DNA from: a virus
Taxonomy: Duplodnaviria; Caudoviricetes
Direction: 5' to 3' (one strand)
DNA length: 37,319 nucleotides
Virus record (IMG/VR): IMGVR_UViG_3300043442_000283
Location: 1-37,319 of that record
The notes below the pieces were generated by a model. It was not told where the DNA came from and made no database searches. It saw nothing but the letters and a program-made list of their open reading frames with translations. Both the position numbers and the translations under genes were made by a program. Position 1 is the first letter of the stretch; each line of letters opens with the position of its first letter. Below are positions 4,828-35,588 of the stretch, in pieces.

Positions 4828-5085
4828 ATGTCGGCCATCAAGATCATCGTGGCGCACCCGCACATCGAGAGCGAAGGCGGCGTCTTGGAATACTGCGCCA
4901 CCTACCGCTTGAGCGAAGCAGTGCTTGGCGTCATCGACGGAGAGGTTGGCTACGAGCCAGACCCAGGCCTGTCCGATGCTGAGATCCGCACGGAGCTGAT
5001 CAACATGATCGTGGCCCATGCGAACCTGCAGACGAGCAACGTCGAAGCGTTCACTATCAGCGACGTCATCACATGGGAGCTGTGA
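4828..5085 (+). CDS. Hypothetical acidic protein
   Basis: 85 aa, tightly packed between neighbours. Confidence 0.6.
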   Translation: MSAIKIIVAHPHIESEGGVLEYCATYRLSEAVLGVIDGEVGYEPDPGLSDAEIRTELINMIVAHANLQTSNVEAFTISDVITWEL

Positions 5086-5375
5086 TCGTGACAACGGCAG
5101 ACAAGCAATGGGATCGCTGGATGCGCATCGCCAGCGTGGCAACGACAAGCGTGGTTCTTCCCGGGATCGCGTGGGCCGTCAACATGACCAGGGACCTCGA
5201 CGACCTGCGCAACCGCGTTGCGATGTTGGCGCAGCAGATGGACACAGATCGCAAAGGCATGGCGTCGCTCTGCGACGAGATCAAAGGCCTCCGCAGCAGC
5301 GTCGATGCACTTCGCAGCGACGTGTTGCAGAGACTGACGCGAGTCGAAACTCGCTTGGACACGACCATCAAATGA
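5073..5375 (+). CDS. Single-TM plus coiled-coil membrane protein (holin or i-spanin candidate; start may be GTG 5082)
   Basis: Hydrophobic IASVATTSVVLPGIAWAV followed by heptad-rich LDDLRNRVAML...LTRVETRL. Confidence 0.55.
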   Translation: MGAVIVTTADKQWDRWMRIASVATTSVVLPGIAWAVNMTRDLDDLRNRVAMLAQQMDTDRKGMASLCDEIKGLRSSVDALRSDVLQRLTRVETRLDTTIK

Positions 5376-5782
5376 AAGCACTTCTACTTGCAGCCGTGAT
5401 CTGCACGCTTCCATCGTGCGGTATCTACACCAAGCTCAACGACGCCGTGGACCGCATCGACCTCGCAACCAAAGAGGCCGATCAAGCCTTGCAAGGCGTG
5501 CAGCAGGGCCTCGTTGCGATGGGCGACAAAGGCAAAGAGCTTGCCGACAAGGTTGAGCAGGTGCGGACCGCGCTTGCGCAGGCAGACTTGAACGCCGATG
5601 GGCGCGTGGCAGGCGTCAACGAGTGGACGGAGCTGATCTATCAACTGCTCGCGCTGCTTGGCGTCGGCGGCTACGCCGTTGCGACGAACGCGAAGAGGCG
5701 AGCCAACACCCAGGCGATCTATGCGCAACTCGACGAACTCAAGGCTGCTGTGCGCACTGGCAGCGATGTCCCTCCTCAGTAG
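5372..5782 (+). CDS. Lipoprotein with coiled coil and C-terminal TM (spanin candidate)
   Basis: ATGA overlap at 5372. MKALLLAAVICTLPSC lipobox-like signal, helical middle, LIYQLLALLGVGGYAVA TM followed by basic KRR. Confidence 0.6.
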   Translation: MKALLLAAVICTLPSCGIYTKLNDAVDRIDLATKEADQALQGVQQGLVAMGDKGKELADKVEQVRTALAQADLNADGRVAGVNEWTELIYQLLALLGVGGYAVATNAKRRANTQAIYAQLDELKAAVRTGSDVPPQ

Positions 5783-5900
5783 CTGCGCAACGACCAAGGC
5801 GATTGCCGAAGCTCCCGTTGAGTTCTGGCTGACCCTTGAGCGCATCGCGTTTGCCATGGGCAGCGACCTTGAATCGCTGCTCTTGTTGTTCGGTCTGTAG
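5721..5900 (+). CDS. Small overlapping lipoprotein (o-spanin-like)
   Basis: MRNSTNSRLLCALAAMSLLSSC signal with an LSSC lipobox. Starts inside the preceding gene in another frame. Confidence 0.55.
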   Translation: MRNSTNSRLLCALAAMSLLSSCATTKAIAEAPVEFWLTLERIAFAMGSDLESLLLLFGL

Positions 5901-5921: not shown

Positions 5922-7703
5922 ATGCCCATCGTTCTCGGCAATCGTTGTCCGCACTTCTTCGACGGATGGCGGCGCGTCATCACTTCAGACACACACGAGC
6001 ATCTTGCGGGTAAGTGCGCAGACGGAACGCGGTGGGTGTGGGCCTACGACCTTGGCAACGACCTTGCGGCGTTCGATGTGCGCGTTCAGCTCGCACCATA
6101 CCAGCAGCTGAAGATCGAGCTGGTAGACAGCGAGCCCGAGGCGTTCGAGATCGCACCGCTCCCGCCGCACTTGTTGGATTGGTTCGGCGGACCTCCGTGC
6201 ATCGAAGGCATCCCCATGTCGTGGGTGACGTCAGCGCAGGAAGGTGCCTGCTACAAGGCGCACTTCCGCATGAGGACCAGCACGTTGCTGCTCATCGACT
6301 TGTGGGTCCGCTGGTATCCCGACACGCCAAGCGTTGCCGAAGGCGAAGTCGTGATCGCTGCAAGCAACCCGAACGTGCAAGACGTGACACTGCACCTGCA
6401 GGACGATCTCAACCTGACATGGGGCACTGCGCAGGTGAACACGTTCGGCGACGCAGACGGCGTGTTGATGGCGCGAGGTTCAAGCCTTGCTGATGGGCAA
6501 GCGCGCTCGCTCCCGTTCGTGATGGCATGGGGCAACCGAGCAACGACGCAAGCGGATTGGTCGCGCATTAGCGCGCTCAACTCGTTCGGAATCGTTGGGC
6601 ATGGCGTGCGTGATCTCTACCCGCAAGGCAACCCGTGGCCCATTGCAGGCAACCACAGGTTGCGCGTGGAGCAAGCGATTGCCGATGCCGTTGTGCGCAT
6701 CCACAGCTACGACGCAGGACCTCTAGGCGTTGCGAAGGCCAGCACGGTGACTGGTTCGCAGGAGGATCAGCTGTTCCCAGGAGCCGATGCAGCTCTAGCA
6801 ACTGGCTACGTTGGGCACGAGCTTGCGCGATACCTGACCGCTATGCGGCAATCGTTGCGCCCGTGCCATCACCTTGAAGCAGACGGTGAGCATCTGCGAG
6901 TTGAGCAGCATCCGCAGCTAGTGTTCTGGGATGGGCGTCCGCACTGGCACCCAGGCGTTTCGCCTGATCGCTTGGGCAAGCCGCGCACGCCTTACGCAGA
7001 CGAGCTGCACGGGTGGTGGGGGCCTGATGTTGAACACGCGCTCTGCCAGACGCTGACGCTTGCGGCGCGCACGACACCTAGCGACGCGCTGCAGTGGCAG
7101 CTGCAACATTGGGCGCGCATCTATCGCCTGCAGTGGACAACGCGTCCCGGCTACAGCACGACGCAGACCTACGCAGCTCGCGCAGTTGGCTACGAGTGCT
7201 TGCTAGCGTGCAACCTGTGGAGCGCACTGCGCAACCGCGACACTGCACAACGTGTGCGCCTGCACTGGCAGCAACGCTTCGACACTGTGTTGCGTCCTGT
7301 GTTGTCCGCTAAGTGGGCCAACATCTGGGACGTTCGACAGGACGATCCGCGTCTTGGTGTTGGCCCTTGGTGGATGCCATGGCAACAGGCACTGGGTGCC
7401 TACGGAATGCAGCTAGCAGGTCGCACGTTCGACAGCGATGCTGCTACGACAATCGCGCAGGCCGCAGCGTTGAAGGTGGTCGAAGATGCATGGGTGCTGC
7501 GCAGCGAACGCTGGTTGTCGATGCCGCAGATGCCAGCGTTGGGGCAAGCACCAGCAACTGCGGACGAATCGTTCAATCACTTCGGCATGTGCCTCGCCCC
7601 TGCGGTTGTGCTGATGAACGACGCTAGCCACGCGAAGTCGAAGGCCATATGGGCGCAGCTAACCAGCGACAACAACGCGAAGGTCTGGTTGCCTCCGTTG
7701 TGA
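5922..7703 (+). CDS. Hypothetical 593-aa Trp/His-rich protein (possible beta-sandwich plus alpha/alpha-toroid glycan-acting enzyme)
   Basis: GAGG RBS at about 5909 and a long ORF. Beta-like N-terminus and helical aromatic-rich C-terminus (WWMPWQQALGAYG). Fold is inference only. Confidence 0.6.
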   Translation: MPIVLGNRCPHFFDGWRRVITSDTHEHLAGKCADGTRWVWAYDLGNDLAAFDVRVQLAPYQQLKIELVDSEPEAFEIAPLPPHLLDWFGGPPCIEGIPMSWVTSAQEGACYKAHFRMRTSTLLLIDLWVRWYPDTPSVAEGEVVIAASNPNVQDVTLHLQDDLNLTWGTAQVNTFGDADGVLMARGSSLADGQARSLPFVMAWGNRATTQADWSRISALNSFGIVGHGVRDLYPQGNPWPIAGNHRLRVEQAIADAVVRIHSYDAGPLGVAKASTVTGSQEDQLFPGADAALATGYVGHELARYLTAMRQSLRPCHHLEADGEHLRVEQHPQLVFWDGRPHWHPGVSPDRLGKPRTPYADELHGWWGPDVEHALCQTLTLAARTTPSDALQWQLQHWARIYRLQWTTRPGYSTTQTYAARAVGYECLLACNLWSALRNRDTAQRVRLHWQQRFDTVLRPVLSAKWANIWDVRQDDPRLGVGPWWMPWQQALGAYGMQLAGRTFDSDAATTIAQAAALKVVEDAWVLRSERWLSMPQMPALGQAPATADESFNHFGMCLAPAVVLMNDASHAKSKAIWAQLTSDNNAKVWLPPL

Positions 7704-11211: not shown

Positions 11212-11417
11212 GCAGCCTGCCTGGATCGCGCCGCGAAGGCGAGACCCTGCGTGAATGGGTCGTGCGTTGTTGGCGGTTGGGTTGGGTGCCTGCTAACGGT
11301 GGCACCGAGCAGCCGATGCTGCGGCACGGGAGGCGCGTGCTGTATTGCGTTGACCTACAACGCGGCGTTCACGCCTACATCAACTGCGACACGGACATGG
11401 TGGAGGAGAACGTCTGA
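11208..11417 (+). CDS. Hypothetical early protein (WVPANGGTE...LYC...HAYINCDTD)
   Basis: GGAGG RBS and ATG 11208 in frame with track ORF 10728..11417. TGATG overlap with the next gene. Confidence 0.65.
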   Translation: MSSLPGSRREGETLREWVVRCWRLGWVPANGGTEQPMLRHGRRVLYCVDLQRGVHAYINCDTDMVEENV

Positions 11418-11839
11418 TGCAGACATTCCTTCCCTACGCCGACTTCCGCGCATCTGTCCGATGCCTGGACTACCGCAGGCTAGGCAAGCAGCGTGTGGAA
11501 GCCATGCAGCTCGTCCAGGCGATCCAAACCAACGGCACTTGGCTCAAGCATCCTGCTGCACAGATGTGGAAGAACCACGTGCCTGCGCTGCAGTTTTACC
11601 ATGACTGTGCGGTCGTGGAGTGGATTCGTCGTGGCTACCGTAACTCCATGACCCTGTATCTACCCACGGAAGTCGAGATGCCCTCTTGGATCGGCATGGA
11701 GACGTTTCATGCCAGCCACCGCAGCAACCTGCTCCGGAAGGACCCAGACTTCTACGGGCAGTTTGGATGGGTCGAACCCAACAACCTGCCCTACGTGTGG
11801 CCCAGCCACGAACGCAAACCCATGTTGGTCAATGCGTAG
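11417..11839 (+). CDS. MSMEG_6728-family / pyrimidine dimer DNA glycosylase (DenV-like)
   Basis: MQTFLPY.DF...LD.RRLGKQRVEA, HPA..MW, W..RGY, P.W.G...HASHRSNLLRKDP..Y, LPYVWP. Confidence 0.85.
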   Translation: MQTFLPYADFRASVRCLDYRRLGKQRVEAMQLVQAIQTNGTWLKHPAAQMWKNHVPALQFYHDCAVVEWIRRGYRNSMTLYLPTEVEMPSWIGMETFHASHRSNLLRKDPDFYGQFGWVEPNNLPYVWPSHERKPMLVNA

Positions 11840-16581: not shown

Positions 16582-17367
16582 ATGATCCACGCTCAAAAGG
16601 TAGTAGTCGTTCCGATCAGCACGCTTGTTCCAGACCCTGCCAACGCACGCAAGCACGACGAAAAGAACGTCACGGCCATCGCCAACTCGCTGCAGTTGTT
16701 CGGGCAGCGCAAGGCCATCGTCGTTCAAAAGAAGGGCATGGTGGTTCGCGCAGGCAACGGCACGCTGCAAGCAGCCAAGCAACTAGGCTGGAAGGAGATC
16801 GCTGCCGTGGTCATCGACGATGACAACACGACCGCAGCACAGTATGCCATTGCCGACAACAGATCAGCAGAGCTAGCCGATTGGGACATGGACGCGCTCG
16901 GCAGCTTGCTTACGGAGTGGGACGATGAAGTGCAGCAACAGCTCGGCTTCGACAAGGGCGATCTAGAGCAGCTCATGCAGGACTCCGAGCAGGCAGCGGC
17001 AGAGCTGACTGACAACTACTCGCGCAAGGTGCAGGCCCCAATCTACGAACCCAAGGGCACGCAGCCCAAGGTTGCTGAGTTGTTCGACCGCAGTGCCACC
17101 GAACGGTTGCAGCAGGAGATCGCCGCGCACCAACTGCCGCCCGACGTGAAGGAGTTCTTGCTGGCTGCTGCGCAACGGCACACGCAGTTCCACTTCGCAC
17201 GAATCGCCGAGTTCTACTGCCACGCAGAACCAGAAACGCAACGCTTGATGGAAGCGTCCGCGCTAGTGGTCATCGACTTCAACGAAGCGGTGGCACGCGG
17301 CTTCGTGCAGCTCACGGAACGGCTGCGCAACCTCGCAGAACAGGAGGCCACCAATGACGATGCGTGA
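16582..17367 (+). CDS. ParB/Srx N-terminal domain fused to a helical glycosyltransferase-associated domain
   Basis: L.PDPANARKH...SLQLFGQ...AGNGTLQAA...IADNRSAELADWD, then YSRKVQAPIYEP...FLLAAAQRH...IAEFY.HA...MEASALVVIDF. Confidence 0.8.
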   Translation: MIHAQKVVVVPISTLVPDPANARKHDEKNVTAIANSLQLFGQRKAIVVQKKGMVVRAGNGTLQAAKQLGWKEIAAVVIDDDNTTAAQYAIADNRSAELADWDMDALGSLLTEWDDEVQQQLGFDKGDLEQLMQDSEQAAAELTDNYSRKVQAPIYEPKGTQPKVAELFDRSATERLQQEIAAHQLPPDVKEFLLAAAQRHTQFHFARIAEFYCHAEPETQRLMEASALVVIDFNEAVARGFVQLTERLRNLAEQEATNDDA

Positions 17368-18226
17368 TGACTTCTGCATGTTGATCCTCACGCACGGCAG
17401 GCCAGATAACGTGCTAACGCTGGAGGCACTCGCAAAGGCAGGCTACACAGGCAAGGTCTTCCTGGTGATAGACAACGAGGACAAGCGAGCGCAGGAGTAC
17501 TTCGACAGATACGGTGATCGCGTAGTGCAGTTCGACAAGCAGGCTGTCGATGAGTGGTCCGACGCAGGCGACAACACCGGAAAGCGCAACGCGATTCTGT
17601 GGGCACGCAACGCGTCGTTCGACATCGCCAAGCAGGTTGGCTGCCGCTACTTCATGCAGCTCGACGATGACTACGTCCGTTTCGAGTTCATGTTCGACCA
17701 CGAGTTCCGCCCGACGCACATACCCATTCGGGCTGCAATGGACGATGTGATCAACGCGATGCTCGACTTCTACATCGCAACACCAGTGCTCACGATTGCC
17801 ATGGCACAGCAGGGCGACTTCAACGGTGGCCCGCAAGGACAGCCGAGCGTGCGGTTGTTACGCAAGGCCATGAACAGCTTCTTGTGCAGCACAGATCGCC
17901 CGTTCAAGTTCGCTGGCAGGTTCAACGAGGACGTAAGCACCTACGTGAGCCGCAGCCTTCGCGGGCAGTTGTTCTTCACCGTCATGCAGACCTCGCTGTC
18001 GCAGAAGCAAACGCAGACGCAGAAGGGTGGAATGACCGAGGCCTACATGGATTCGGGCACCTACGTGAAGTCGTTCATGACCGTGATGCACGCGCCCTCG
18101 TGCGTCAAGATTGGCGAGTTCGGGGACAACAGGTCCGACAAGTATCGCATTCACCATCGCATCAACTGGGAATGCTGCGCACCCAAGATCCTGCACGAAA
18201 AGCACAGGAGCACCATGAATGGCTAG
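17354..18226 (+). CDS. TAGT/GREB1-like GT-A glycosyltransferase (putative DNA base modification)
   Basis: ILTHGRP, RNA, YFMQLDDDY (DxD), GRFNEDV, Q..GGMTE.Y, RIHHRINW. Context is ParB upstream and terminase downstream. Confidence 0.7.
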   Translation: MTMRDDFCMLILTHGRPDNVLTLEALAKAGYTGKVFLVIDNEDKRAQEYFDRYGDRVVQFDKQAVDEWSDAGDNTGKRNAILWARNASFDIAKQVGCRYFMQLDDDYVRFEFMFDHEFRPTHIPIRAAMDDVINAMLDFYIATPVLTIAMAQQGDFNGGPQGQPSVRLLRKAMNSFLCSTDRPFKFAGRFNEDVSTYVSRSLRGQLFFTVMQTSLSQKQTQTQKGGMTEAYMDSGTYVKSFMTVMHAPSCVKIGEFGDNRSDKYRIHHRINWECCAPKILHEKHRSTMNG

Positions 18227-24008: not shown

Positions 24009-24947
24009 ATGGCTCTTACCATTCTCGAAGCGGCGCGCATCGCCGCTAACAACGGCGAAGACAAGAAGGCGGGCGTCTTGATGACGTTCGCCGAGACCTC
24101 GCCTCTCCTGGCAGCGATGCCCATCGTCAACATCGCTGGCAACTCCTACGCCTACGTGCGTGAGTCAGTCCTTCCTGGCGTCGCGTTCCGCGCCGTCAAC
24201 GAGGCCTACACCGAGTCGGCAGGAGCGACGGCGCAGATCAGCGAGCCGCTGAAGCTCATCGGCGGCGATCTCGACGTGGACAAGTTCCTCGTGCAGACGA
24301 ACGGCGCGCAGGTGCGCAGCGTCCACGAGCGCATGAAGGCCACGGCTTTGGCGCAGCAGATCGGCATCAAGCTCGTCAAGGGCGACGCCACGATCACCAC
24401 GAAGGAGTTCAACGGTCTGGAGGCCCGCTACGGCGGCACGACCACGACCGTTGTCGCTGGTGGTCAAGTCCTCTCCCAGGCGGGCGCGCTGTCGATGAAG
24501 AAGCTGGATGAGATGATCGACTTGGTGGACCCGGGTATCGGCAGCAAGGTTCTGCTGATGACGAAGGCCATGGCGCGCAACATGCTCGCCTACTTGCGCA
24601 GCAGCTCGACCGCCATCAGCATGTCGGTCAACGAGTTCGGCCAACGCGTCACGAGCTACTACAACATGCCCATCCTGATCGCTGACCAGAACGGCGATCA
24701 AGCGGGCATCGTTGCAGGCGATGACGGCACCAGCCCGAACCGCGAGTCGATCTACTGCCTCGCTCTCGGCCCGTCGGGCCTGCACATGATCCAGAGCGGC
24801 GGCATGGTCGTGACGGACCTCGGTGAGGTCCACACGGCTCCCGTCTACCGCACCCGCGTGGAGTGGTATTGCGGCCTCGTTGACGAACACCCGCGCTGCG
24901 TGGCGCGCCTCGCCAACATCAACTCTGCCGACACGGCTGGGGCCTGA
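24009..24947 (+). CDS. Major capsid protein (HK97 fold, BPP-1 Bbp17-like)
   Basis: LPGVAFRAVNEAY, LIGGDLDVDKFL, KEFNGL, YRTRVEWYCGL...PRCVARLANI. Strongly biased codon usage. Confidence 0.9.
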   Translation: MALTILEAARIAANNGEDKKAGVLMTFAETSPLLAAMPIVNIAGNSYAYVRESVLPGVAFRAVNEAYTESAGATAQISEPLKLIGGDLDVDKFLVQTNGAQVRSVHERMKATALAQQIGIKLVKGDATITTKEFNGLEARYGGTTTTVVAGGQVLSQAGALSMKKLDEMIDLVDPGIGSKVLLMTKAMARNMLAYLRSSSTAISMSVNEFGQRVTSYYNMPILIADQNGDQAGIVAGDDGTSPNRESIYCLALGPSGLHMIQSGGMVVTDLGEVHTAPVYRTRVEWYCGLVDEHPRCVARLANINSADTAGA

Positions 24948-24962
24948 TCCAAGGAGCAACAC

Positions 24963-25421
24963 ATGTCCATTCCAGGCGACTACGACGGCACGCTCGACAG
25001 CCTGCTCGTCATCAACAGCACCGCGCACACGGTCGGCAGCGCAACGACGGGCAACGGCTCGACGCTCACGCTGCCAGCCGTCGCGGGTGAGTACACCTTG
25101 CACCTTGAAGTGACCGCCTGCAGCACGGCGACGGGCGACTGCGCGATCCTCAACGTGCAAGGCAGCACGAGCAGCACGTTTGCATCTGGCAACCACCTGC
25201 TCGGAACGCACGCCTTCGGAGCTGCTGCGATCATCACGACTACGCTCGGCGGCACGAACTCTGCGGCACGAGGCACCGGGAGCTACAGCTTCCGTCTGTC
25301 CAACGTTGCGTTCGACAACACGGCGACGCCTATCGTCCTGCCCTACGTTCGCATCCAGGTGCGCACGGTAGGTGCGACTTCGGGCGTGACCTACACCGCG
25401 AGCTTGACGCAGGTGCAGTGA
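24963..25421 (+). CDS. Capsid cement/decoration protein paralog A (Bbp16-like jelly roll)
   Basis: Follows the MCP with an AAGGAG RBS. VQGS...F, LG...G, RGTG.Y, YVRI. Confidence 0.7.
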   Translation: MSIPGDYDGTLDSLLVINSTAHTVGSATTGNGSTLTLPAVAGEYTLHLEVTACSTATGDCAILNVQGSTSSTFASGNHLLGTHAFGAAAIITTTLGGTNSAARGTGSYSFRLSNVAFDNTATPIVLPYVRIQVRTVGATSGVTYTASLTQVQ

Positions 25422-25427
25422 TGCATC

Positions 25428-25450
25428 GGGCCTGCTTTGGCAGGCCCTTA
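25428..25450 (+). terminator. Hairpin between cement A and B (weak terminator or processing site)
   Basis: GGGCCTGC-TTTG-GCAGGCCC followed by TTA. Confidence 0.5.
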
Positions 25451-25463
25451 CCCAGAGGCAACC

Positions 25464-25931
25464 ATGAGCATCAACCAACGCAACGACGCAACGCAGGACC
25501 AAGCGCAGTTCGTCGAGTTCATCGCGGTCGACAACAACGACACGGTCAGCACTCAGGTCTACGACTTGAAGCAAGCAGACCCGTGTCAGTTCAAGGTGCG
25601 CATGGAATGGACGTGGACGAGCATCGCCATCTCCAATCATCAGCGCGTCCTGGTGGTCGGGGGCGACTCGCCCACGTTCGCCACGGGCTACTTCGTCCTG
25701 GGAGCTACCTACCTCGGCGCGCCTGACAGCATCGCTACAGAGACGGGCGTGACGATCTCGGGCTTCCGAGGCACCGGGAAGTACGTCATCGAGTGCAGCA
25801 ACGTCGCAGCCTACAACGACGGCGGCGCGTTCGACTTCAGGCATCGCGTGTGCCGCTACGTGCAAGTCTGGGTGACCAGCGTTGGCGCGAGCAGTGCAGG
25901 CGAAGCCGCCATCCGCATCGACCACAAGTAA
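25464..25931 (+). CDS. Capsid cement/decoration paralog B
   Basis: GAGG RBS and ATG 25464. TFATGYFVLG, RGTGKY, SNVA, CRYVQV align with A and C. Confidence 0.7.
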   Translation: MSINQRNDATQDQAQFVEFIAVDNNDTVSTQVYDLKQADPCQFKVRMEWTWTSIAISNHQRVLVVGGDSPTFATGYFVLGATYLGAPDSIATETGVTISGFRGTGKYVIECSNVAAYNDGGAFDFRHRVCRYVQVWVTSVGASSAGEAAIRIDHK

Positions 25932-25940
25932 GGAGCAAGC

Positions 25941-26432
25941 ATGGGACTCATCGGATCGCTCGACAGAACGCCAGACACCGCCACCGTCTGGGACTCCTCG
26001 GAGTCAGTCGGCAACGCCACAACGGGTGCTAGCTCGGTCTTTGATCTTGGCCCCAGCACTGCTGTGGACCTGAATCAGAACCCGCACGGCGAGCTGATGC
26101 AGGCGCGCTTCACCTTCACGACTTGCAGCGTCGCAGTTGGCGACTTCGTGATGGTTCACGTGCAAGGCTGCAACAAGGCAGACTTCTCGACTGACGTCTA
26201 CAACCTCGGCACGTTGGCTGTAGGAGCTGCGGCTGTCACGAACACGACGATTGGCGTCCTGCAGACGCAGGATCGCGGCCGAGGCACCTACGTCCTCCCG
26301 TTCTACAACATCGGCATCCTTGGCGACGACACTGCGCAGAAGCAGCAGTCGTGTCGCTACGTGCGCATCCAAACCAAGACCACTGGCGCAAGCAGCGCGT
26401 GCGTGTTCTCGGTGCGCATCGAGAAGCTCTAG
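25941..26432 (+). CDS. Capsid cement/decoration paralog C
   Basis: AAGGAG RBS. VG.ATTG, CS.A.GD, VQG, GAAA, RG.G.Y and YVRIQ are shared with A. Confidence 0.7.
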   Translation: MGLIGSLDRTPDTATVWDSSESVGNATTGASSVFDLGPSTAVDLNQNPHGELMQARFTFTTCSVAVGDFVMVHVQGCNKADFSTDVYNLGTLAVGAAAVTNTTIGVLQTQDRGRGTYVLPFYNIGILGDDTAQKQQSCRYVRIQTKTTGASSACVFSVRIEKL

Positions 26433-26525: not shown

Positions 26526-26539
26526 GATGAGGTGATGCA

Positions 26540-28639
26540 GTGGCTGTTCGGAAGTTCTTCCTCAACATCGGACAGAGCAACGCAGGCCCGTCAGCCGACG
26601 CAGCTACGTGGTGGGTGCTTCACCCCAACGTGGACATGCGTTCGGTGCATCCAACGATCAACTCGCCCAACTACGCTCAGGGCAGCTACTCCGACACCTA
26701 CGACTTCCCGTTGGGTCTGTTCCCGAACTACCCATCGGTCAACGTCAAGGGCGTCGGCATCAGCGCGTTGCGCTACCTGACGTTCTACAACCCGATGCCA
26801 ACGGGTGCGTCCGACTACCCGAACACGATGCGGGTCACTGCGGTCGCTAGCACGAACGGCCTGACGTCGCAGCAGTATTGGGTCAGCTCGATGGTCGGCA
26901 AGACGATCACGCGCAAGCGCACGGGAGTGACTTACACCATCGCCACGCACACAGCTCCTGGCAGCGTGATGACGGTCAGCACGAACTTTGACCCGCCGCT
27001 TGAGGTGGGCGAGACGTTTGCGCACACGCTGCACGCAACGGTTGGCGGAAGCGACACAACCTTCACGCACACACTCCTGCTTGGACAGGATTGGCAAAGC
27101 AACGGCACATTCCAATCGAGCCTTGAGGGGTGCCGCATCAAGTGCGTGGCGTTGGGCGTTGGCGGGCACGCGCAGAACCTCAACGAGATCAGGCAAGTCG
27201 CCAGCGTCAGCGGCACCTTCAACAACGTGCTGACGGTCACCGCTGCATTCCCGCAACACGTAACGGCAGGCGATCAGTTCGAGATCCTTCCGCCGAGCGG
27301 CGTCACCTCGTTTGATCGTTGGGCCTACTTCCTGCCGTGGTGCCCGTTCGAGGGCAACGTCAACGCGAACACGCCGCCCAAGCGCAACCCATACCCTCCT
27401 GGGTTCAACTACCCTGCGCATCACGACACGCAGCCGGTCTACAACCCGTTCGCGGGCACGACGCGATTGTGGAACGGGACGTTTGAACGCATCGCCTACC
27501 ACGTAGGCCTGGGCCTGCGCCTGCACGAACACTTCGGTGAGACGATGCACGTGATCTCGCTCGCTCCAGGCGGCACAAGCCTTGGGCATCGTGAGCTGCG
27601 AGACAACGCCTACGGGCACGGGTGGTTCGACTCGTCGCAGCACAGCTACTGGGCACCTGGAGAGGGGAACGCGTGCTTCCAACGCCTGCTTGACACGTTG
27701 GACGCAGGCATCGCCGCAGCCGCGCTGAACGGTGACACACTGCAGTGCGTCGGCGTGTTCTTCGTGCAAGGTGAGGCGGACGCAAGCGACTTGCTGTGGA
27801 GCCAGAACTACCGACCCAACCTGCAACGCCTGAAGACGGCGGTCCGCGATGCGCTTGTTGCTCGCAACATGTGGGCAGGAGCAGCTGCGTCGATCCCGTG
27901 GGTGCAGCCCAAGATCAAAGCGAGCTGGACGTATGCAGCAGCGGTCAACGCAGCCATCGAAGCCGAGGCGGACGCTGATCGCTACATGCGCACGTTGGAA
28001 GTCGAAGACTTCCTGATGGTCGACGCGGCGCACTACAGCGGCATCGGCGCAACGCAGCTGGAGTCGGCAGCATTCACGGCTTGGCTCGCTGCAAGCCAAG
28101 GCATCGTGCAAGACGCGTCCCCGCTCGTAGTTGAGGATGGCGTTGGAGCATCGAGCGGTACCGAGGTCAGCTACGCCACGCCCGACTTCGCTGGTGTCTA
28201 CTTCCAGAACCAAGGCGGCAACGCCGCATGGACTGCGGCGACTGAACAGCAACGCAACGTGGCGTTGATGCAAGCGACCATCTGGATCGACTCGACCTAC
28301 GGCATGCAGTTCGTCGGCTACAAGTCGGTGAACACGCAGCCGCTTGAGTGGCCTCGTGCGTTTGCCTACGACCGCGAGGGCTACGAGATCACGGGCATAC
28401 CGCTCGCCTTGAAGCGTGCGACTGCAGAGGTTGCTCGACGCTGGTTGGAGGACCCAACGCAGCTCTCGCCTGACGTCGCAGTCGGCAGCAACGTCACACA
28501 AGACACGGTGAGCGTTGGACCGATCACGGTGAGCAAGTCCTACGCAGGCACTAAGGATCCCGAGAAGAAGTTCCCAGTCGTTGCGCGCCTATTCAAGGTT
28601 GCGGGCCTGATCGACTCGTCCATGTGGGTGCGTCGATGA
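26540..28639 (+). CDS. SGNH (SASA/NanS-like) O-acetylesterase fused to a DnaT-like head-tail adaptor
   Basis: GQSN (26570), GGTSL, QGE (27767), DAAH (28022). From 28124: LVVEDG...SYA...ALMQAT.WID...F.G....TQPLEWPR...IP.ALKRATAEVA...VGPITVS. Occupies the adaptor position. Confidence 0.8.
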   Translation: MAVRKFFLNIGQSNAGPSADAATWWVLHPNVDMRSVHPTINSPNYAQGSYSDTYDFPLGLFPNYPSVNVKGVGISALRYLTFYNPMPTGASDYPNTMRVTAVASTNGLTSQQYWVSSMVGKTITRKRTGVTYTIATHTAPGSVMTVSTNFDPPLEVGETFAHTLHATVGGSDTTFTHTLLLGQDWQSNGTFQSSLEGCRIKCVALGVGGHAQNLNEIRQVASVSGTFNNVLTVTAAFPQHVTAGDQFEILPPSGVTSFDRWAYFLPWCPFEGNVNANTPPKRNPYPPGFNYPAHHDTQPVYNPFAGTTRLWNGTFERIAYHVGLGLRLHEHFGETMHVISLAPGGTSLGHRELRDNAYGHGWFDSSQHSYWAPGEGNACFQRLLDTLDAGIAAAALNGDTLQCVGVFFVQGEADASDLLWSQNYRPNLQRLKTAVRDALVARNMWAGAAASIPWVQPKIKASWTYAAAVNAAIEAEADADRYMRTLEVEDFLMVDAAHYSGIGATQLESAAFTAWLAASQGIVQDASPLVVEDGVGASSGTEVSYATPDFAGVYFQNQGGNAAWTAATEQQRNVALMQATIWIDSTYGMQFVGYKSVNTQPLEWPRAFAYDREGYEITGIPLALKRATAEVARRWLEDPTQLSPDVAVGSNVTQDTVSVGPITVSKSYAGTKDPEKKFPVVARLFKVAGLIDSSMWVRR

Positions 28640-29001
28640 TCGACGCCGCAAGCGTGTTGCTGGAAGTCGTTGATGCTGTTGCGCAGGTCGGCGCACCTGT
28701 GGTGCTGACGAGCTACGTGGACACGTTCAACGCGGCGACAGGCAAGACCACGCGCACTGCAACGCAGCAGACGGTGATGGCGTCGCCGCTTTACGCGTCG
28801 AGCAAGACGCTTGCGCAGGACACGCGTGAGCCTGCAAGCGCGCAGCTCCTCATGCCTGCGTCGGGCCTAACAACGCCTCCGCGCAACGGCAGCAAGATCG
28901 CTGTCGCCTCGCGTGTGTTCACTGTGCAACAGGTCACAACGCACACGGTGGGCGCAACGATTCTCGCCTACGAGCTGAGCCTGTCGGAGGGCGCGCCGTG
29001 A
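28636..29001 (+). CDS. Head closure / stopper protein
   Basis: ATGA overlap, about 120 aa, beta-rich, neck position. Confidence 0.65.
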   Translation: MIDAASVLLEVVDAVAQVGAPVVLTSYVDTFNAATGKTTRTATQQTVMASPLYASSKTLAQDTREPASAQLLMPASGLTTPPRNGSKIAVASRVFTVQQVTTHTVGATILAYELSLSEGAP

Positions 29002-29528
29002 GCAACAAGCAGAACGCTGCCAACTTCATCGCAAGCCTTGAGCGATTCACGGGCACGGACGTCCCTGCCGCCGTTGTGAAGTTCCACCGCAAGGTGCAGC
29101 TGGAGCTGCTGCGGCGCATCGTCCTTGGGTCGCCTGTTGGCAATCGCACGCGCTGGAAGATCAACCAAGGGCGCAGCCGCAGGAAGCTCCTGCCCAAGGG
29201 GTATGTCGGCGGGCAGTTCCGTGGCGCGTGGCAACTGACGCTTGGCACGCCTAGCACGCTCGACATCCGCAGACCGAAGAACGGTCCGCCCCCGCGTCCC
29301 ATTGGAGCCGCAGACGGCAAGGCCATCCTGGGTGGCCTGCAGCCGTTCACCGTGTCCTACTTGGTGAATAACCTCCCCTACGCAGCCGTCTTGAACGAGG
29401 GCAGGCCCAAGGGCACGCCGTGGACGAAGATCAAGGAGATCGGGTGGGTCGAGACCATCGTTGCGTCTGTTGCGCAGTGGGCACAGCGCGAGCAGCTCAC
29501 CAAGTCGGAGGACGCAAGTGGTCAGTAG
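28998..29528 (+). CDS. HK97 gp10-like neck / tail completion protein
   Basis: SPVG...GY.GGQFRGAWQ...YLVNNLPYA.VLNEG. Confidence 0.78.
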   Translation: MSNKQNAANFIASLERFTGTDVPAAVVKFHRKVQLELLRRIVLGSPVGNRTRWKINQGRSRRKLLPKGYVGGQFRGAWQLTLGTPSTLDIRRPKNGPPPRPIGAADGKAILGGLQPFTVSYLVNNLPYAAVLNEGRPKGTPWTKIKEIGWVETIVASVAQWAQREQLTKSEDASGQ

Positions 29529-29946
29529 CTTGACGCAAGCGGTCGCTAGCGTGCGGCAACGCTTCCACACGCTGATCACTGTCGGAGAAGCTCTGCCGAC
29601 GATGCACGACAACGCCTTGAACGTTGCGTTGCCTGCAACGGGTCGCTATTGCCGCTTCCTTGTGCAGCTCGGAGACCAGCAGCAGCAGACCGTCAGTGCC
29701 AACGGCGGCGGGCATTGGCGCACAGTCGGCACTGCGGTCGCAGCGATCTACGAACCAGCAGGCGATGGCGACGGCTGGCAGCTTGAGCTGGCAGATGCGG
29801 TCGTTGATGCGTTCCGTGGGCAGACCATCGTCGGCCCGCCTGTCGTGCGCTTTGATGCGCCAAGCGTTACCAACGAGCCTGTGCTAGAGGACGGCATGTG
29901 GCTCGTCATCGTGTCCATCCCGTTCATCGTTGAGGAGTACGTCTAG
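29518..29946 (+). CDS. Tail terminator protein
   Basis: GGAGG RBS and GTG 29518. IYEPAGDG....LADAV...F, W...VSIPF. Lies before the tail tube gene. Confidence 0.72.
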   Translation: MVSSLTQAVASVRQRFHTLITVGEALPTMHDNALNVALPATGRYCRFLVQLGDQQQQTVSANGGGHWRTVGTAVAAIYEPAGDGDGWQLELADAVVDAFRGQTIVGPPVVRFDAPSVTNEPVLEDGMWLVIVSIPFIVEEYV

Positions 29947-29948
29947 TC

Positions 29949-31178
29949 ATGGCAGCGATCAGCTCTAGTCGGTTCGGCAGCTACTTGTGGACGGGCACGC
30001 CGTCGACCACGTTGCCTGCCACGCTTTCGTTCAAGAATCACAACGTCGCCAAGCCGGGAGTGAGCGGCGGGCCGAACAACACGACGGTGGAGTCGCAGGT
30101 CATTCGGCAGTCGCGCAACCCTCCTGGCATCAAGCTCGTAGGTCCAGGTAGCGCGTTGACGATCCCGTTCGAGATGCAGGTGCCCGTGATCGCTGGCAAC
30201 CCAGGCTGGTGGGATCTGCTGAAGGCCAGCATCTACGCAGACACGGTGACTGCTAGCTGGACGAGCGCGGTGAACACGACATGGACAAGCACGAACCTTG
30301 CCATCACTGGAGCCGATCAAGCTGGCGTGTTCAGTAACGTGGAGATCGGCGATGTGTTGCAGGTCTACAGCAACGCAGCCGCCACGGTGGTCTACTACGC
30401 TCGCGTCCTTAGTCGAGCCAACTCAGGCTCGACCACGACGTCGCTTGGCCTCGATCGCTCTGTGCCGACTGGCTTGTCTGCTGCAACAGACCTTCGCTTC
30501 AAGCGCGGCACGCGCATCAAGAACGGCAGCACGCAGGACCACTTCGTGATGCTGCGCAGCTACTACGCTCCAGGCACAAGCACCTACAACAGGTTCGACC
30601 TCTACACAGACGAGACGATCGACAGCGCGAACGTGACGCTCTCCAACAAGGGCATCATCACGGGGCAGTTCCAGACGGTCGGCATCGGTTGCGATGGTGT
30701 CTACGACGATACGACGTTTGCAACGCGCACGGTCGGCAGCACGGTGACGCACGCCAACGCGCCGTCTGGGCAGGTCCTCGATGCGACCAACGACGTTCCG
30801 TGGATTCGCGTTGCGGGTGCGAGCTACGGCGTGCAGTCGATCACGTTCAGCTGGAACAACAACGGGCAAGCGCGCTCGCAGGTGGGCCAGTATGTGGCGA
30901 GCGGCATCAGCGCGGGCGACTTCCGAGGCAACGGCCAGTTCACCGCCTACTTCGACGACATTGCCGAGTTCAACAAGGCCCTCGCTGGCACCGCGTCCAG
31001 CATGTATGTGGTCATGGAGAACGACTCGCAGCAGGCGATCATCGTTTCCTTCCCGCGCATCCGCTACGGCAACCCAACGCTGGTCGGGCAAGACCGCGAT
31101 GTGATCGCCACGCTCCCGTTCTCGTTCGAGCAGGATGACACGGAGAACCTCGGCGTGCGCATCCAGGTGGTGAACTGA
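29949..31178 (+). CDS. Major tail tube protein with inserted beta domain
   Basis: ES..IR.SRN, SITFSWNN, G.FTAYFDD, IVSFPRIRY, IATLPF. Followed by chaperone and TMP. Confidence 0.82.
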   Translation: MAAISSSRFGSYLWTGTPSTTLPATLSFKNHNVAKPGVSGGPNNTTVESQVIRQSRNPPGIKLVGPGSALTIPFEMQVPVIAGNPGWWDLLKASIYADTVTASWTSAVNTTWTSTNLAITGADQAGVFSNVEIGDVLQVYSNAAATVVYYARVLSRANSGSTTTSLGLDRSVPTGLSAATDLRFKRGTRIKNGSTQDHFVMLRSYYAPGTSTYNRFDLYTDETIDSANVTLSNKGIITGQFQTVGIGCDGVYDDTTFATRTVGSTVTHANAPSGQVLDATNDVPWIRVAGASYGVQSITFSWNNNGQARSQVGQYVASGISAGDFRGNGQFTAYFDDIAEFNKALAGTASSMYVVMENDSQQAIIVSFPRIRYGNPTLVGQDRDVIATLPFSFEQDDTENLGVRIQVVN

Positions 31179-33561: not shown

Positions 33562-34518
33562 ATGGCCTTCCACAACGTTCAGCTTCCGCCCGCGATCAGC
33601 TACGGCGCAACAGGTGGTCCTGCATACGGCACGACGGTGCAAACGACGTCGAGCGGGCACGAGTACCGCGTCGCTCGCCAAGCGCGTCCGCGTCGCACAT
33701 ATCAGTTCGACAAGCTCCTCATGCAGCCTGCAGAGTGGGGCGCGTTGATCGACTTCTGGATCGCTCGACGCGGACATTTGCATGGGTTTCGCTTCAAGGA
33801 CTGGAGCGACTTCACGACCGCAGCAGACGGCGTGAGCGCGCCTAGCAACCTCGACGTCATCCTTGGGACTGGTGATGGCATCGAGACGCAGTTCCAGCTC
33901 CTCAAGTCTTACGACGTTGGAGGACTGAACCCGTTCAACGAACCGATCAGCCTGCCTGTAGCAGGAACGCTGCAGGTCGCGGTCGCGGGCACGCCGACCT
34001 CTAGCTACACGCTTACGAATCCAGGCGGGTTGATCACGTTTGCTGCTGCGCCAACTGCTGGGCAGGTCATCACCGCAGGCTTCGAGTTCGATCGCAGCGT
34101 TCGCTTCAACCAAGCGGACGAGACGCTCAACATGCGCATCGAGCGCGGCTACGTCGCCAACTGGGCGGGCATCACCTGCCTGGAGCAGCTCGACGAAGAG
34201 CAGTCGCCAGAACTTTGGTATCCAGGCGGCAGCAGCGGCACGATCCAAACCGCGCAAGACGTTGTGCTGACGTTTGACACCGAGCTGTGGACGATCCAGA
34301 ACACAGGCGCAACAACGCGCAACGTGTTCTTGCCTGCTCCCGATCGTGTGGTAGGTGGACCTCGCTTGTTCGTGGTCATCAATCTGCTTGCAAGCGCAGG
34401 CAACTTGCAGCTGCGCGATGACACAGGCGTGCCTGTCGGGACTGCGTTCCTGCCTGGAGAAACCAAGCGCGTCGCCCTGAGCTGGACAGGCGCAACTGCA
34501 ACGTGGTTGACCTACTGA
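33562..34518 (+). CDS. Distal tail protein (DUF2460-like, RcGTA g12-like) with about 110-aa C-terminal extension
   Basis: FH.VQLP..ISYGA.GGP...T.V...SGHE.R, F.ARRG..HGFRFKDWSD, GTGDG..TQFQL, ITAGFEFD..VRF. Confidence 0.9.
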   Translation: MAFHNVQLPPAISYGATGGPAYGTTVQTTSSGHEYRVARQARPRRTYQFDKLLMQPAEWGALIDFWIARRGHLHGFRFKDWSDFTTAADGVSAPSNLDVILGTGDGIETQFQLLKSYDVGGLNPFNEPISLPVAGTLQVAVAGTPTSSYTLTNPGGLITFAAAPTAGQVITAGFEFDRSVRFNQADETLNMRIERGYVANWAGITCLEQLDEEQSPELWYPGGSSGTIQTAQDVVLTFDTELWTIQNTGATTRNVFLPAPDRVVGGPRLFVVINLLASAGNLQLRDDTGVPVGTAFLPGETKRVALSWTGATATWLTY

Positions 34519-35588
34519 TGGTCCACACGCGCACAGCTTTTGATGAGCAGTTTGGGCGATCGCTCAGCCGCTCGATCACAGCGAACGCAGACCTGCCACT
34601 GAACTACGGTGCGGGCGGCGCACGCTTCCTGGTCATCAGTGCCAGCGCGGGCTTGAGCGTGCGTCTGCCTGATGCCAGAAAGCTGCGAACGGGCGCGGCT
34701 GTGTTCTCGATCTACAACAGCGGCTCCAACCTCTTCACGGTCACCGACTGGGCAGGCGCGTCAGTGCAGGTGCTGCTGCCTGGACGCATCGTGGAGCTGC
34801 ACCTGTTGTCCAACGCAACGTCTAGCGGCTCATGGTGGCCCGAGACGTTCGTTGCAAGTGCGGGCACGCCGCTGACGCTGGGGCGCGTTCCCCTAAGCAT
34901 CAAGGTCTCGTCGAACCAGTCGGGTTTGAACCTGAGAACGTTGGCGGATCGCTACGACTACACAGGCGAATACCCTCTGGCGTTGCGTGTTGAGATTGCG
35001 CAGAGCGTCAACATTGACGCCAACGTGCCAGGAGTCACAAGCCAGATCCGTGCCCTTGATACTGGTGTGTTCTTCGCAGGCACAACGATCCTGCTCGTGA
35101 ATCGCGGGACCATTCAAGGCTTGGGAGGTGCAGGTGGACAAGGTGCAGACAGCTTCCTAGGCGCAACGCCGAGTCCAGGCTTCAACGGTGGGACCGCGAT
35201 CTACGCACGCCACAACCTCACAATCGTCAACTTCGGGCTGATCGCTGGTGGCGGCGGAGGTGGCGGCGGCGGCGGTGCCTATGGCGGCGGCGGCGGCGGA
35301 GGCGGCGCAGGCTACCCTCCTGGGCGTGGAGGCTTGGGCCGCAACGGCGGGCAGAGCGGAGGCGACGGGAGCGCAACTCTAGGTCTTGGTGGCGCAGGAA
35401 GTGCAACAGGTGGAGCGGGTGGCGATGGCGGACCTTGGGGATCGGCAGGCACGGCAGGCAGCGCAGGAACCGGAGGCGCGGGCGCAGCTGCTGGAGCTGC
35501 AGGCTACGCGCTACTCTCAGCGGGCGGCGGGCCTGTCATCACGAAGCTGACGGCGGGAACGATCTACGGCCCGGAGGTTCTGTCGTGA
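34518..35588 (+). CDS. Glycine-rich tail-tip / fibre protein
   Basis: TGATG overlap. NRGTIQGLGGAGG, N.GLIAGGGGGGG and a long GGxGG run. Confidence 0.7.
   Translation: MVHTRTAFDEQFGRSLSRSITANADLPLNYGAGGARFLVISASAGLSVRLPDARKLRTGAAVFSIYNSGSNLFTVTDWAGASVQVLLPGRIVELHLLSNATSSGSWWPETFVASAGTPLTLGRVPLSIKVSSNQSGLNLRTLADRYDYTGEYPLALRVEIAQSVNIDANVPGVTSQIRALDTGVFFAGTTILLVNRGTIQGLGGAGGQGADSFLGATPSPGFNGGTAIYARHNLTIVNFGLIAGGGGGGGGGGAYGGGGGGGGAGYPPGRGGLGRNGGQSGGDGSATLGLGGAGSATGGAGGDGGPWGSAGTAGSAGTGGAGAAAGAAGYALLSAGGGPVITKLTAGTIYGPEVLS

Follow-up and report, generated by a model that had tools for sequence, protein, structure and literature searches.

The esterase-adaptor fusion gene

The stretch of DNA analysed here, called the window below, is the whole of the IMG/VR virus record IMGVR_UViG_3300043442_000283, comprising 37,319 nucleotides (nt) of a tailed phage (Duplodnaviria; Caudoviricetes). 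The gene under study lies on its plus strand at 26540..28639 and encodes a predicted SGNH acetylesterase fused to a head-tail adaptor domain, as assigned with Pfam, PHROGs and homologs. It is a single uninterrupted open reading frame (ORF) of 699 amino acids (aa), as the initial annotation had described, with no stop between GTG 26540 and TGA 28639. A Shine-Dalgarno (SD) sequence, GAGGTG, is situated at 26529..26534 (plus strand), 5 nt upstream of the GTG, and its duplex with the anti-SD sequence (-6.9 kcal/mol) is like that of the major capsid protein (MCP) gene. The protein in the record begins at Met33 and is therefore devoid of Ser13, the predicted nucleophile. This start was rejected: it has no SD sequence, and full-length homologs open with MAVRKF, which identifies the recorded start as a gene-calling error.

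The two halves are joined by a short linker (aa 520-527; 28097..28120, plus strand), and the structural model has a predicted local distance difference test score (pLDDT) of 66-67 over aa 521-540. The junction, 28090-28125, was checked for a stop or frameshift, and gap-free contigs of three studies span it. Contigs X2 and X6 showed no differences over the junction, while X3 carried eight substitutions, of which the five listed in or near the junction were all synonymous; X5 had no piece covering this part. Since X2 shares its sample with a possible source run, the independent junction contigs are X3 and X6. The fusion was confirmed as genuine and not an artefact.

Fold and catalytic motifs of the esterase domain

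An AlphaFold2 model from a 92-row alignment had a mean pLDDT of 86.6 and a predicted template modelling score of 0.75, and according to it aa 1-519 are predicted to fold as a split acetylesterase of the SASA/CE6-type SGNH class. Pfam SASA (PF03629) was matched at aa 369-472 with 27.9 bits, against a curated cut-off of 24.8. Residues 3-519 superposed on the single-domain, acetylxylan-esterase-like 1ZMB (1-228) with Z 23.3 and a root mean square deviation of 2.0 Å over 217 residues, so blocks I and V rejoin across a 286-aa insert into one SGNH domain in the model. The pLDDT was 88-96 at aa 1-30 and 92-97 at aa 491-520. The next folds were 2APJ (Z 23.2), NanS 3PT5 (Z 21.5) and the tailspike of cyanopodophage Pan3 (Z 21.5), followed by XAC1771 (Z 18.8) and a sialic acid esterase (Z 17.1); generic SGNH proteins reached at most 14. 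Queried by sequence as a single protein, the fusion gave no matches in the PDB.

All blocks of the SASA/NanS type that had been proposed for this protein were located on the plus strand. The GQSN nucleophile, the QGE block and DxxH are motifs of the SASA/CE6 family. Block I, GQSN, occupies aa 11-14 (26570..26581) and holds the predicted nucleophile Ser13 (26576-26578); block II, GGTS, lies at aa 344-347 (27569..27580), with Gly345 kept in 24 of the 28 aligned Ad1 fusions, i.e., fusions to the same adaptor family. Block III, within the Pfam SASA match, is a QGE of the SASA/CE6 type (27767..27775; QGEAD, aa 410-414), and block V is D495-x-x-H498 (28022..28033; DAAHY, aa 495-499), where the Asp was kept in 26/28. 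The residues G11-Q-S-N14, Q410-G-E, D414 and H498 were invariant in all 28 sequences. As a control, the other serines and histidines of aa 1-520 were counted in the same alignment: Ser13 was the sole invariant one among 35 Ser, and His498 the sole invariant one among 18 His. This pattern suggests that the catalytic residues are under selection in the Ad1 fusions. Judging by the superposition, the predicted triad Ser13-His498-Asp495 may come within hydrogen-bond distance. A motif search in 51 Ad1 fusions found 42 with all motifs, three that lacked the Asp only, and six that lacked more.

An insert of about 300 aa with beta modules after block I had also been foreseen. According to the secondary structure of the model and the SGNH alignment (3-519), it comprises about 286 aa (aa 30-315; 26627..27484, plus strand) between block I and the remaining SGNH core, and it holds two six-stranded RIFT-type beta-barrels (aa 94-162 and 163-252; 26819..27295, plus strand; pLDDT 94.7). 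The barrels matched accessory barrels of tail tube, baseplate and tail-tip proteins, GH110 galactosidases and depolymerase spikes; as these fold matches were only middling (Z 7-8.3), no function was assigned. ESM Atlas gave no usable match for the insert. The barrel profile also matched the tail-tip protein of the same phage at aa 160-224 (independent E-value, iE, 1e-4), and its hub marginally (iE 0.03). The barrels look like a common virion-surface module. That they bind glycan is a guess, and speculatively they could serve as spacers or weak glycan grips.

The adaptor domain and the proposed neck ring

The C-terminal domain (aa 528-699; 28121..28636, plus strand) belongs to the Ad1 family, also known as PF20557 DnaT_2 or YuA gp63-like, according to Pfam, PHROGs and the model. 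It matched PHROG 477, head-tail adaptor Ad1, at aa 528-689 (E 6e-30) and Pfam DnaT_2 at aa 528-686 (E 7e-21), and aa 522-693 shared about 33% identity with proteins annotated as adaptors in YuA- and M6-like phages. In the model the domain is a helical bundle with a beta-hairpin. The gene order is MCP, three small paralogous genes, the fusion gene, Hc1, Ne1, Tc1 and tail tube. The profile matches and the position between the capsid genes and Hc1 bear out the earlier assignment of a DnaT-like adaptor to the neck slot. The ssDNA-binding role implied by the Pfam name was rejected on the basis of gene position and phage annotations. There was a single adaptor match within the window, and likewise in each Ad1 locus that reaches this gene, and the domain is predicted to be the only head-tail adaptor of the phage. 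We are confident that the fusion protein is built into the neck.

By analogy with known necks, twelve copies would form the ring beneath the portal, their C-termini lying inside and their N-terminal cargo exposed on the outer face. In roseophage R4C, twelve adaptor copies sit on the portal as a cap; each C-terminus latches into the portal clip, and an immunoglobulin-like (Ig) domain at the N-terminus lies at the periphery (PMC10276861). The adaptor of phi24B is also given as 12 copies (bioRxiv 10.64898/2026.04.10.717836). A geometry of the R4C type, with the C-terminus in the portal and the N-terminus peripheral, would explain why all cargo is N-terminal. In a crude geometric estimate, twelve spheres of 520 aa gave a ring radius of about 98 Å. 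Adaptors have an outer radius of 60-70 Å, against which a collar of this size is plausible.

Distribution of the esterase among adaptor families

The survey set consisted of 219 proteins, of which 152 contained the esterase core. In 140 of these the core preceded a member of one of three adaptor families, with 51 copies on Ad1, 86 on a podoviral adaptor and three on a gpW-like domain. Seven more copies preceded unassigned domains of 160-227 aa. Among the 79 non-self homologs of the window protein, 44 combined the esterase with Ad1, 34 with the podoviral adaptor and one with the gpW-like domain. Fusions to this adaptor family had been suggested as worth surveying; that the esterase is a mobile cassette which also occurs on unrelated adaptors had not been foreseen. 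Two sequences, one of them itself a member, went into the gpW profile, and PHROGs supports the gpW call independently. The seven copies with unassigned partners (P0084, P0088, P0118, P0153, P0159, P0167, P0180) carry three further types of C-terminal domain with no PHROG match, which are probably other adaptor families.

The podoviral domain matched the connector of PDB 8CK1 (E 6e-32) and the 12-chain protein of 9EFK, and there was no profile similarity between Ad1 and podoviral adaptors. In all loci read (L008, L025 and the Ad1 loci) each fusion was found in its own adaptor slot. The podoviral locus L008 has the order portal, scaffold, capsid, fusion and nozzle-like tail gene, and L025 has the order terminase, small ORF, fusion and portal, which is the slot of lambda W. 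In the latter locus the open frame with the portal (L025:3351-6374, minus strand) is 1007 aa long and shares DNA with the fusion gene, which is read in a different frame. Its portal match begins only at aa 454, and the portion upstream of that is probably a shadow frame.

Dereplication reduced 146 esterase cores to 88, and on their tree the adaptor type changed 12 times, compared to a minimum of 4. Monophyly of the Ad1 fusions was rejected (approximately unbiased test, p-AU 5e-106, 26 rows); the rows, a 22-row group including the window protein plus four others, were chosen after viewing the tree. The nearest relative of the window esterase was a podoviral fusion, 64% identical, in a clade with 98/96 support. 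The tree rejects a single origin of the Ad1 fusions, and the esterase cassette has moved repeatedly among neck families. That it has come to lie on an adaptor time and again is the strongest argument for selection of this position.

Other cargos were found on the same adaptor. The esterase core was missing from 65 Ad1 proteins, of which 22 were longer than 250 aa. In alignment A5, with 11 members (P0205, P0136, P0163, P0165, P0174, P0184, P0186, P0189, P0194, P0198 and P0221), a cargo of 500-600 aa on the Ad1 adaptor matched the GH49 dextranase 1OGM (E 9.5e-6). Pfam recognised no glycanase in this cargo, and a scan of 21 loci for dextranase-like cargo gave matches to the adaptor part of the profile only, none to the cargo part. 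Some other Ad1 cargos look like degenerate SGNH or Ig domains. In P0158, P0203, P0215, L035 and L036, Ad1 is preceded by apparently two tandem, partly degenerate SGNH domains.

Comparison with known systems

The window protein shares its fold (Z 21-23) and the GQSN, QGE and His motifs with the SASA/CE6 esterases 1ZMB of C. acetobutylicum, 2APJ (At4g34215) of Arabidopsis and 3PT5 (NanS) of E. coli, but differs from them in the 286-aa two-barrel insert, in an identity of 14-18% only, and in the fusion to a neck protein. Among phage proteins, structural matches were obtained with SGNH receptor-binding proteins: G7C gp63.1 (4QNL, Z 10.8), Pan3 (9VYH, Z 21.5) and a tail chain of N4 (9LC0, Z 12.2). 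As summarised in a review, phage G7C cannot infect without the deacetylase activity of gp63.1, for which the role of a processive motor has been proposed (PMC10743462). SGNH fibres of Klebsiella prophages hydrolyse p-nitrophenyl acetate (PMC13123978). The SGNH domains of G7C, Klebsiella, Pan3 and N4 are separate fibre, spike or tail products, whereas that of the window would be part of an essential neck-ring subunit. Compared with a tailspike or fibre layout, the window protein has its anchor at the C-terminus and its gene in the neck slot, and it showed only a weak local match to the tail fibre family PHROG 4201 in the SGNH core.

The NanS-p proteins come closer in one respect. The gp84 protein of phi24B also combines a SASA esterase with a small virion-anchoring domain and is present in the virion, but its anchor is an N-terminal capsid-hexon decoration domain from which the esterase is cleaved off, while the window protein is anchored by a C-terminal adaptor (bioRxiv 10.64898/2026.04.10.717836). 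The NanS-p layout of DUF1737, SASA and jelly roll was not found in the window protein, which has an SGNH strand from residue 2 and ends in the adaptor. The initial annotation had described phage O-acetylesterases as tailspike domains or free NanS-p proteins; it had missed that a NanS-p esterase is already known as a capsid decoration, in phi24B.

With respect to the neck, the R4C adaptor is likewise a dodecameric siphophage adaptor with an extra N-terminal peripheral domain and a C-terminal portal hook, but that cargo is an Ig-like domain of 106 aa, described as without enzyme activity and thought to be structural, and the adaptor family is another one (PMC10276861). The Ad1 genes of YuA- and M6-like phages occupy the same slot as the window gene, and cultured members match its adaptor part only. 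No phage record among the 169 that matched covered 80% of the full fusion as a query, and among 50,697 deposited phage records none matched the esterase part. The adaptors TTPA of Klebsiella phage KP32 reportedly hydrolyse saccharides (PMC5440376, PMC5741709); in that case the bare adaptor is credited with the activity, and it bears no fused enzyme domain. Lactococcal collars formed by neck passage structures carry carbohydrate-binding modules at the neck, but they are a separate, non-essential protein (PMC6669499). Depolymerases are placed on fibres and spikes, with one pre-neck appendage as an exception, and P22 gp4 is given as the one lysin at the neck (PMC5380687).

Full-text literature searches, judged by titles and abstract openings, found no adaptor-esterase fusion, in agreement with the earlier statement that no description of the architecture was known; subscription journals and supplements were outside their scope and may hold annotations. 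The fusion appears to be a virion-displayed SGNH deacetylase placed on an essential neck ring and apparently undescribed in print. Glycan enzymes of phages are expected on fibres, spikes and, recently, capsids, and the adaptor is usually regarded as plumbing. A 57-kDa domain with an enzyme fold in the essential neck ring, refitted repeatedly across virion types, would mean that scans restricted to fibres miss host-recognition genes, and in the present record the start even removes the catalytic serine. The family would also provide evidence that adaptor N-termini tolerate large 12-fold payloads. It could be a source of new acetylesterases, a possible marker for phages of poorly sampled hosts, and a test case for whether deacetylation remote from the tail tip can drive adsorption.

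Proposed function of the collar and alternative explanations

We consider it somewhat probable that a neck ring of up to twelve esterases grips and de-O-acetylates the capsule or exopolysaccharide of the host, as an accessory to the tail-tip adhesins. The adaptor domain would form the ring and display up to twelve predicted esterases. Each could bind an acetylated sugar, hydrolyse the acetyl ester by way of Ser13-His498-Asp495, release and rebind, after the model of G7C gp63.1 and the Klebsiella SGNH fibres. With such a cycle, capture would be multivalent and reversible, and the virion may pass through the glycan layer. The tape measure protein has about 540-550 aa. Tails measure about 0.15 nm per tape-measure residue, which implies a tail near 80 nm here. 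The collar would sit at the head end of this long tail, whose tip has a protein of its own besides a gp38-like adhesin; these separate adhesins, which the initial annotation had missed, are why the collar is regarded as probably accessory. It may be a device for first contact or for escape in a thick glycan layer, and not a trigger of DNA ejection.

Several points weigh against this proposal. The neck lies far from the tail tip and is ill placed for acting on a receptor, and the authors of the R4C structure thought the adaptor Ig domain unlikely to act in adsorption (PMC10276861). Phi24B cleaves the NanS-p esterase off the virion (bioRxiv 10.64898/2026.04.10.717836). In the survey set, five of the 152 esterase copies had little or nothing C-terminal to them and could be free forms or truncations. 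GQSN was missing from the first 45 residues in 23 of the 86 podoviral fusions (some of them fragments, some with GQNQ or GQNN), indicating that members of the wider family can lose catalysis. Finally, a profile of the adaptor alone gave no matches against the PDB; with no solved relative found by profile, the domain is called an adaptor on the strength of its PHROG and Pfam labels, the annotations in other phages and the order of the genes. In fold searches of the PDB with the whole model the SGNH domain filled the listing and the adaptor domain was absent from it, which is no evidence against an adaptor fold.

A bolder version of the proposal is possible, and we put it forward tentatively. 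Uncultured phages of aquatic habitats, perhaps infecting Planctomycetota, may form a large guild in which the essential adaptor ring is a general platform for the display of glycan-attacking enzymes. An esterase cassette would have jumped many times between siphoviral, podoviral and lambda-like necks, elsewhere the same ring would bear a beta-helix glycanase or SGNH domains in tandem, and the 12-fold collar would be a processive motor that carries the virion through acetylated capsule.

The best surviving alternative, although rather improbable, is that the collar is mainly a multivalent sugar-binding adhesin, through the SGNH pocket or the barrels, with slow or dispensable catalysis. It would fit those podoviral relatives that lost the serine motif yet retain the domain, the Ad1 cargos that look like degenerate SGNH or Ig domains and the binding modules on lactococcal neck passage structures (PMC6669499). 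The invariance of Ser13, QGE and His498 in 28/28 Ad1 fusions, where other Ser and His vary, argues for an active enzyme instead.

It is unlikely that the adaptor only delivers the esterase, which would be packaged and then cut at the linker to give a soluble enzyme after lysis. Phi24B provides the precedent, gp84 being cut from its capsid anchor (bioRxiv 10.64898/2026.04.10.717836), and the linker has low model confidence and a column identity of 45%. However, it extends just about eight residues past the last esterase helix and contained no conserved motif in the loci read, and a soluble role could be achieved by a free gene, without repeated refusion to adaptors.

Slightly less probable still is an active SGNH hydrolase at the neck whose substrate is something other than O-acetylated polysaccharide of the host, such as a lipid ester, the O-acetyl groups of peptidoglycan, or glycans of algae or particles in the environment. 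Enzymes with the SGNH fold act on many substrates, and lipases and peptidoglycan O-acetyl enzymes were found at Z 11-14. Of the six best folds (Z 17-23), however, one was a phage tailspike and the other five were carbohydrate acetylesterases of the SASA type or related to it, all well ahead of the remainder, and the alternative cargo of Ad1 is a glycanase-like domain.

The earlier suggestion that an in-frame GTG at 28106 might also yield bare adaptor, so that only some ring subunits carry the esterase, fared poorly. The codon is indeed in frame (codon 523), lies five codons ahead of the adaptor domain and is also present in L001, and crowding of the larger cargos (1000-1270 aa, ring radius 120-130 Å) would favour mixed rings. 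But its SD sequence is weak: -2.6 kcal/mol is within the range of the 28 internal ATG and GTG codons of the gene (down to -3.7 kcal/mol), while nine of the 12 correctly placed gene starts have -6 to -10 kcal/mol. Locus L009, near-identical over the rest of the linker, has no start codon there, and no candidate with an SD better than -3.0 was found in the eight Ad1 sequences with a located junction (ten were compared, of which two were mislocated). Bare adaptor from this codon is therefore unlikely, and mixed rings formed in this way very improbable.

An assembly artefact or a recent loss of a stop codon has practically no probability left, for although the genome is metagenome-assembled, its junction is spanned by contigs in three studies and 44 further Ad1 fusions were found among the 79 non-self matches, the full-length ones being 41-87% identical.

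Genome and further observations

The genome is that of a complete circular phage of about 37.07 kb, the ends of the window overlapping by 253 nt with four mismatches; a tail-assembly ORF from 36937 crosses the overlap. On account of this overlap the completeness of 61% estimated by CheckV was rejected. Genes for terminase, portal, scaffold, capsid, neck, tail tube, tape measure, hub and tail tip were recognised on the plus strand with Pfam and PHROGs, and this set identifies a siphophage. No integrase or canonical endolysin was detected with the same databases among 37 ORFs scanned. Most of the stretch is contained in sequencing runs of freshwater or aquatic metagenomes, and the phage is regarded as an uncultured freshwater one.

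Upstream of the fusion gene, Pfam and PHROGs place the MCP gene and three small paralogous genes at 24009..26432 (plus strand). The three, at 24963-26432 on the same strand, encode 152-164 aa, are unannotated and match each other by tblastn at 29-37%; they also occur in L001, L024 and L029, while other Ad1 loci gave no match. They are probably cement or decoration proteins. Downstream, the head closure gene Hc1, Ne1, the tail terminator and the tail tube occupy 28636..31178 (plus strand; PHROGs 161, 169 and 179; Pfam Phage_tube_2). The gp38-like adhesin, glycine-rich (PF05268, E 4e-8), is encoded at 34503-35588 (plus strand) within a siphoviral tail-tip module that resembles those of gene transfer agents.

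In a prophage search of 185,579 prokaryotic genomes there were 54 pattern matches, none of which was confirmed, and the N-terminal DNA pattern gave none. The best hint of the host is a gene at 5922-7703 (plus strand) for a 593-aa protein, according to which the host may belong to Planctomycetota. This protein has no Pfam or PHROG family, and its look-alikes in ESM Atlas are PcRGLX-like RIFT-barrel/toroid proteins. The nearest bacterial PcRGLX-like clusters are mostly from Planctomycetota. Of the 184 homologs found, 120 were listed, and all four of these with an organism name came from metagenome-assembled genomes of Planctomycetota (38-44% identity). A distant homolog is present in the podovirus L008 (L008:4024-5928, 22%). 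The protein lies near the lysis region and is possibly glycan-acting. Small membrane- or lipoprotein-like ORFs, with a lipobox-like signal in ORF 5372-5782, were found at 5049-5900 (plus strand), the expected site of a lysis cassette.

Just upstream of the terminase, at 16582-18226 (plus strand), a ParB-like gene adjoins a TET-associated glycosyltransferase (PF20691, E 5e-32), and the pair is likely a DNA base-modification module. A pyrimidine-dimer DNA glycosylase (PF03013) is encoded at 11417-11839 (plus strand), which fits a phage of sunlit surface water.

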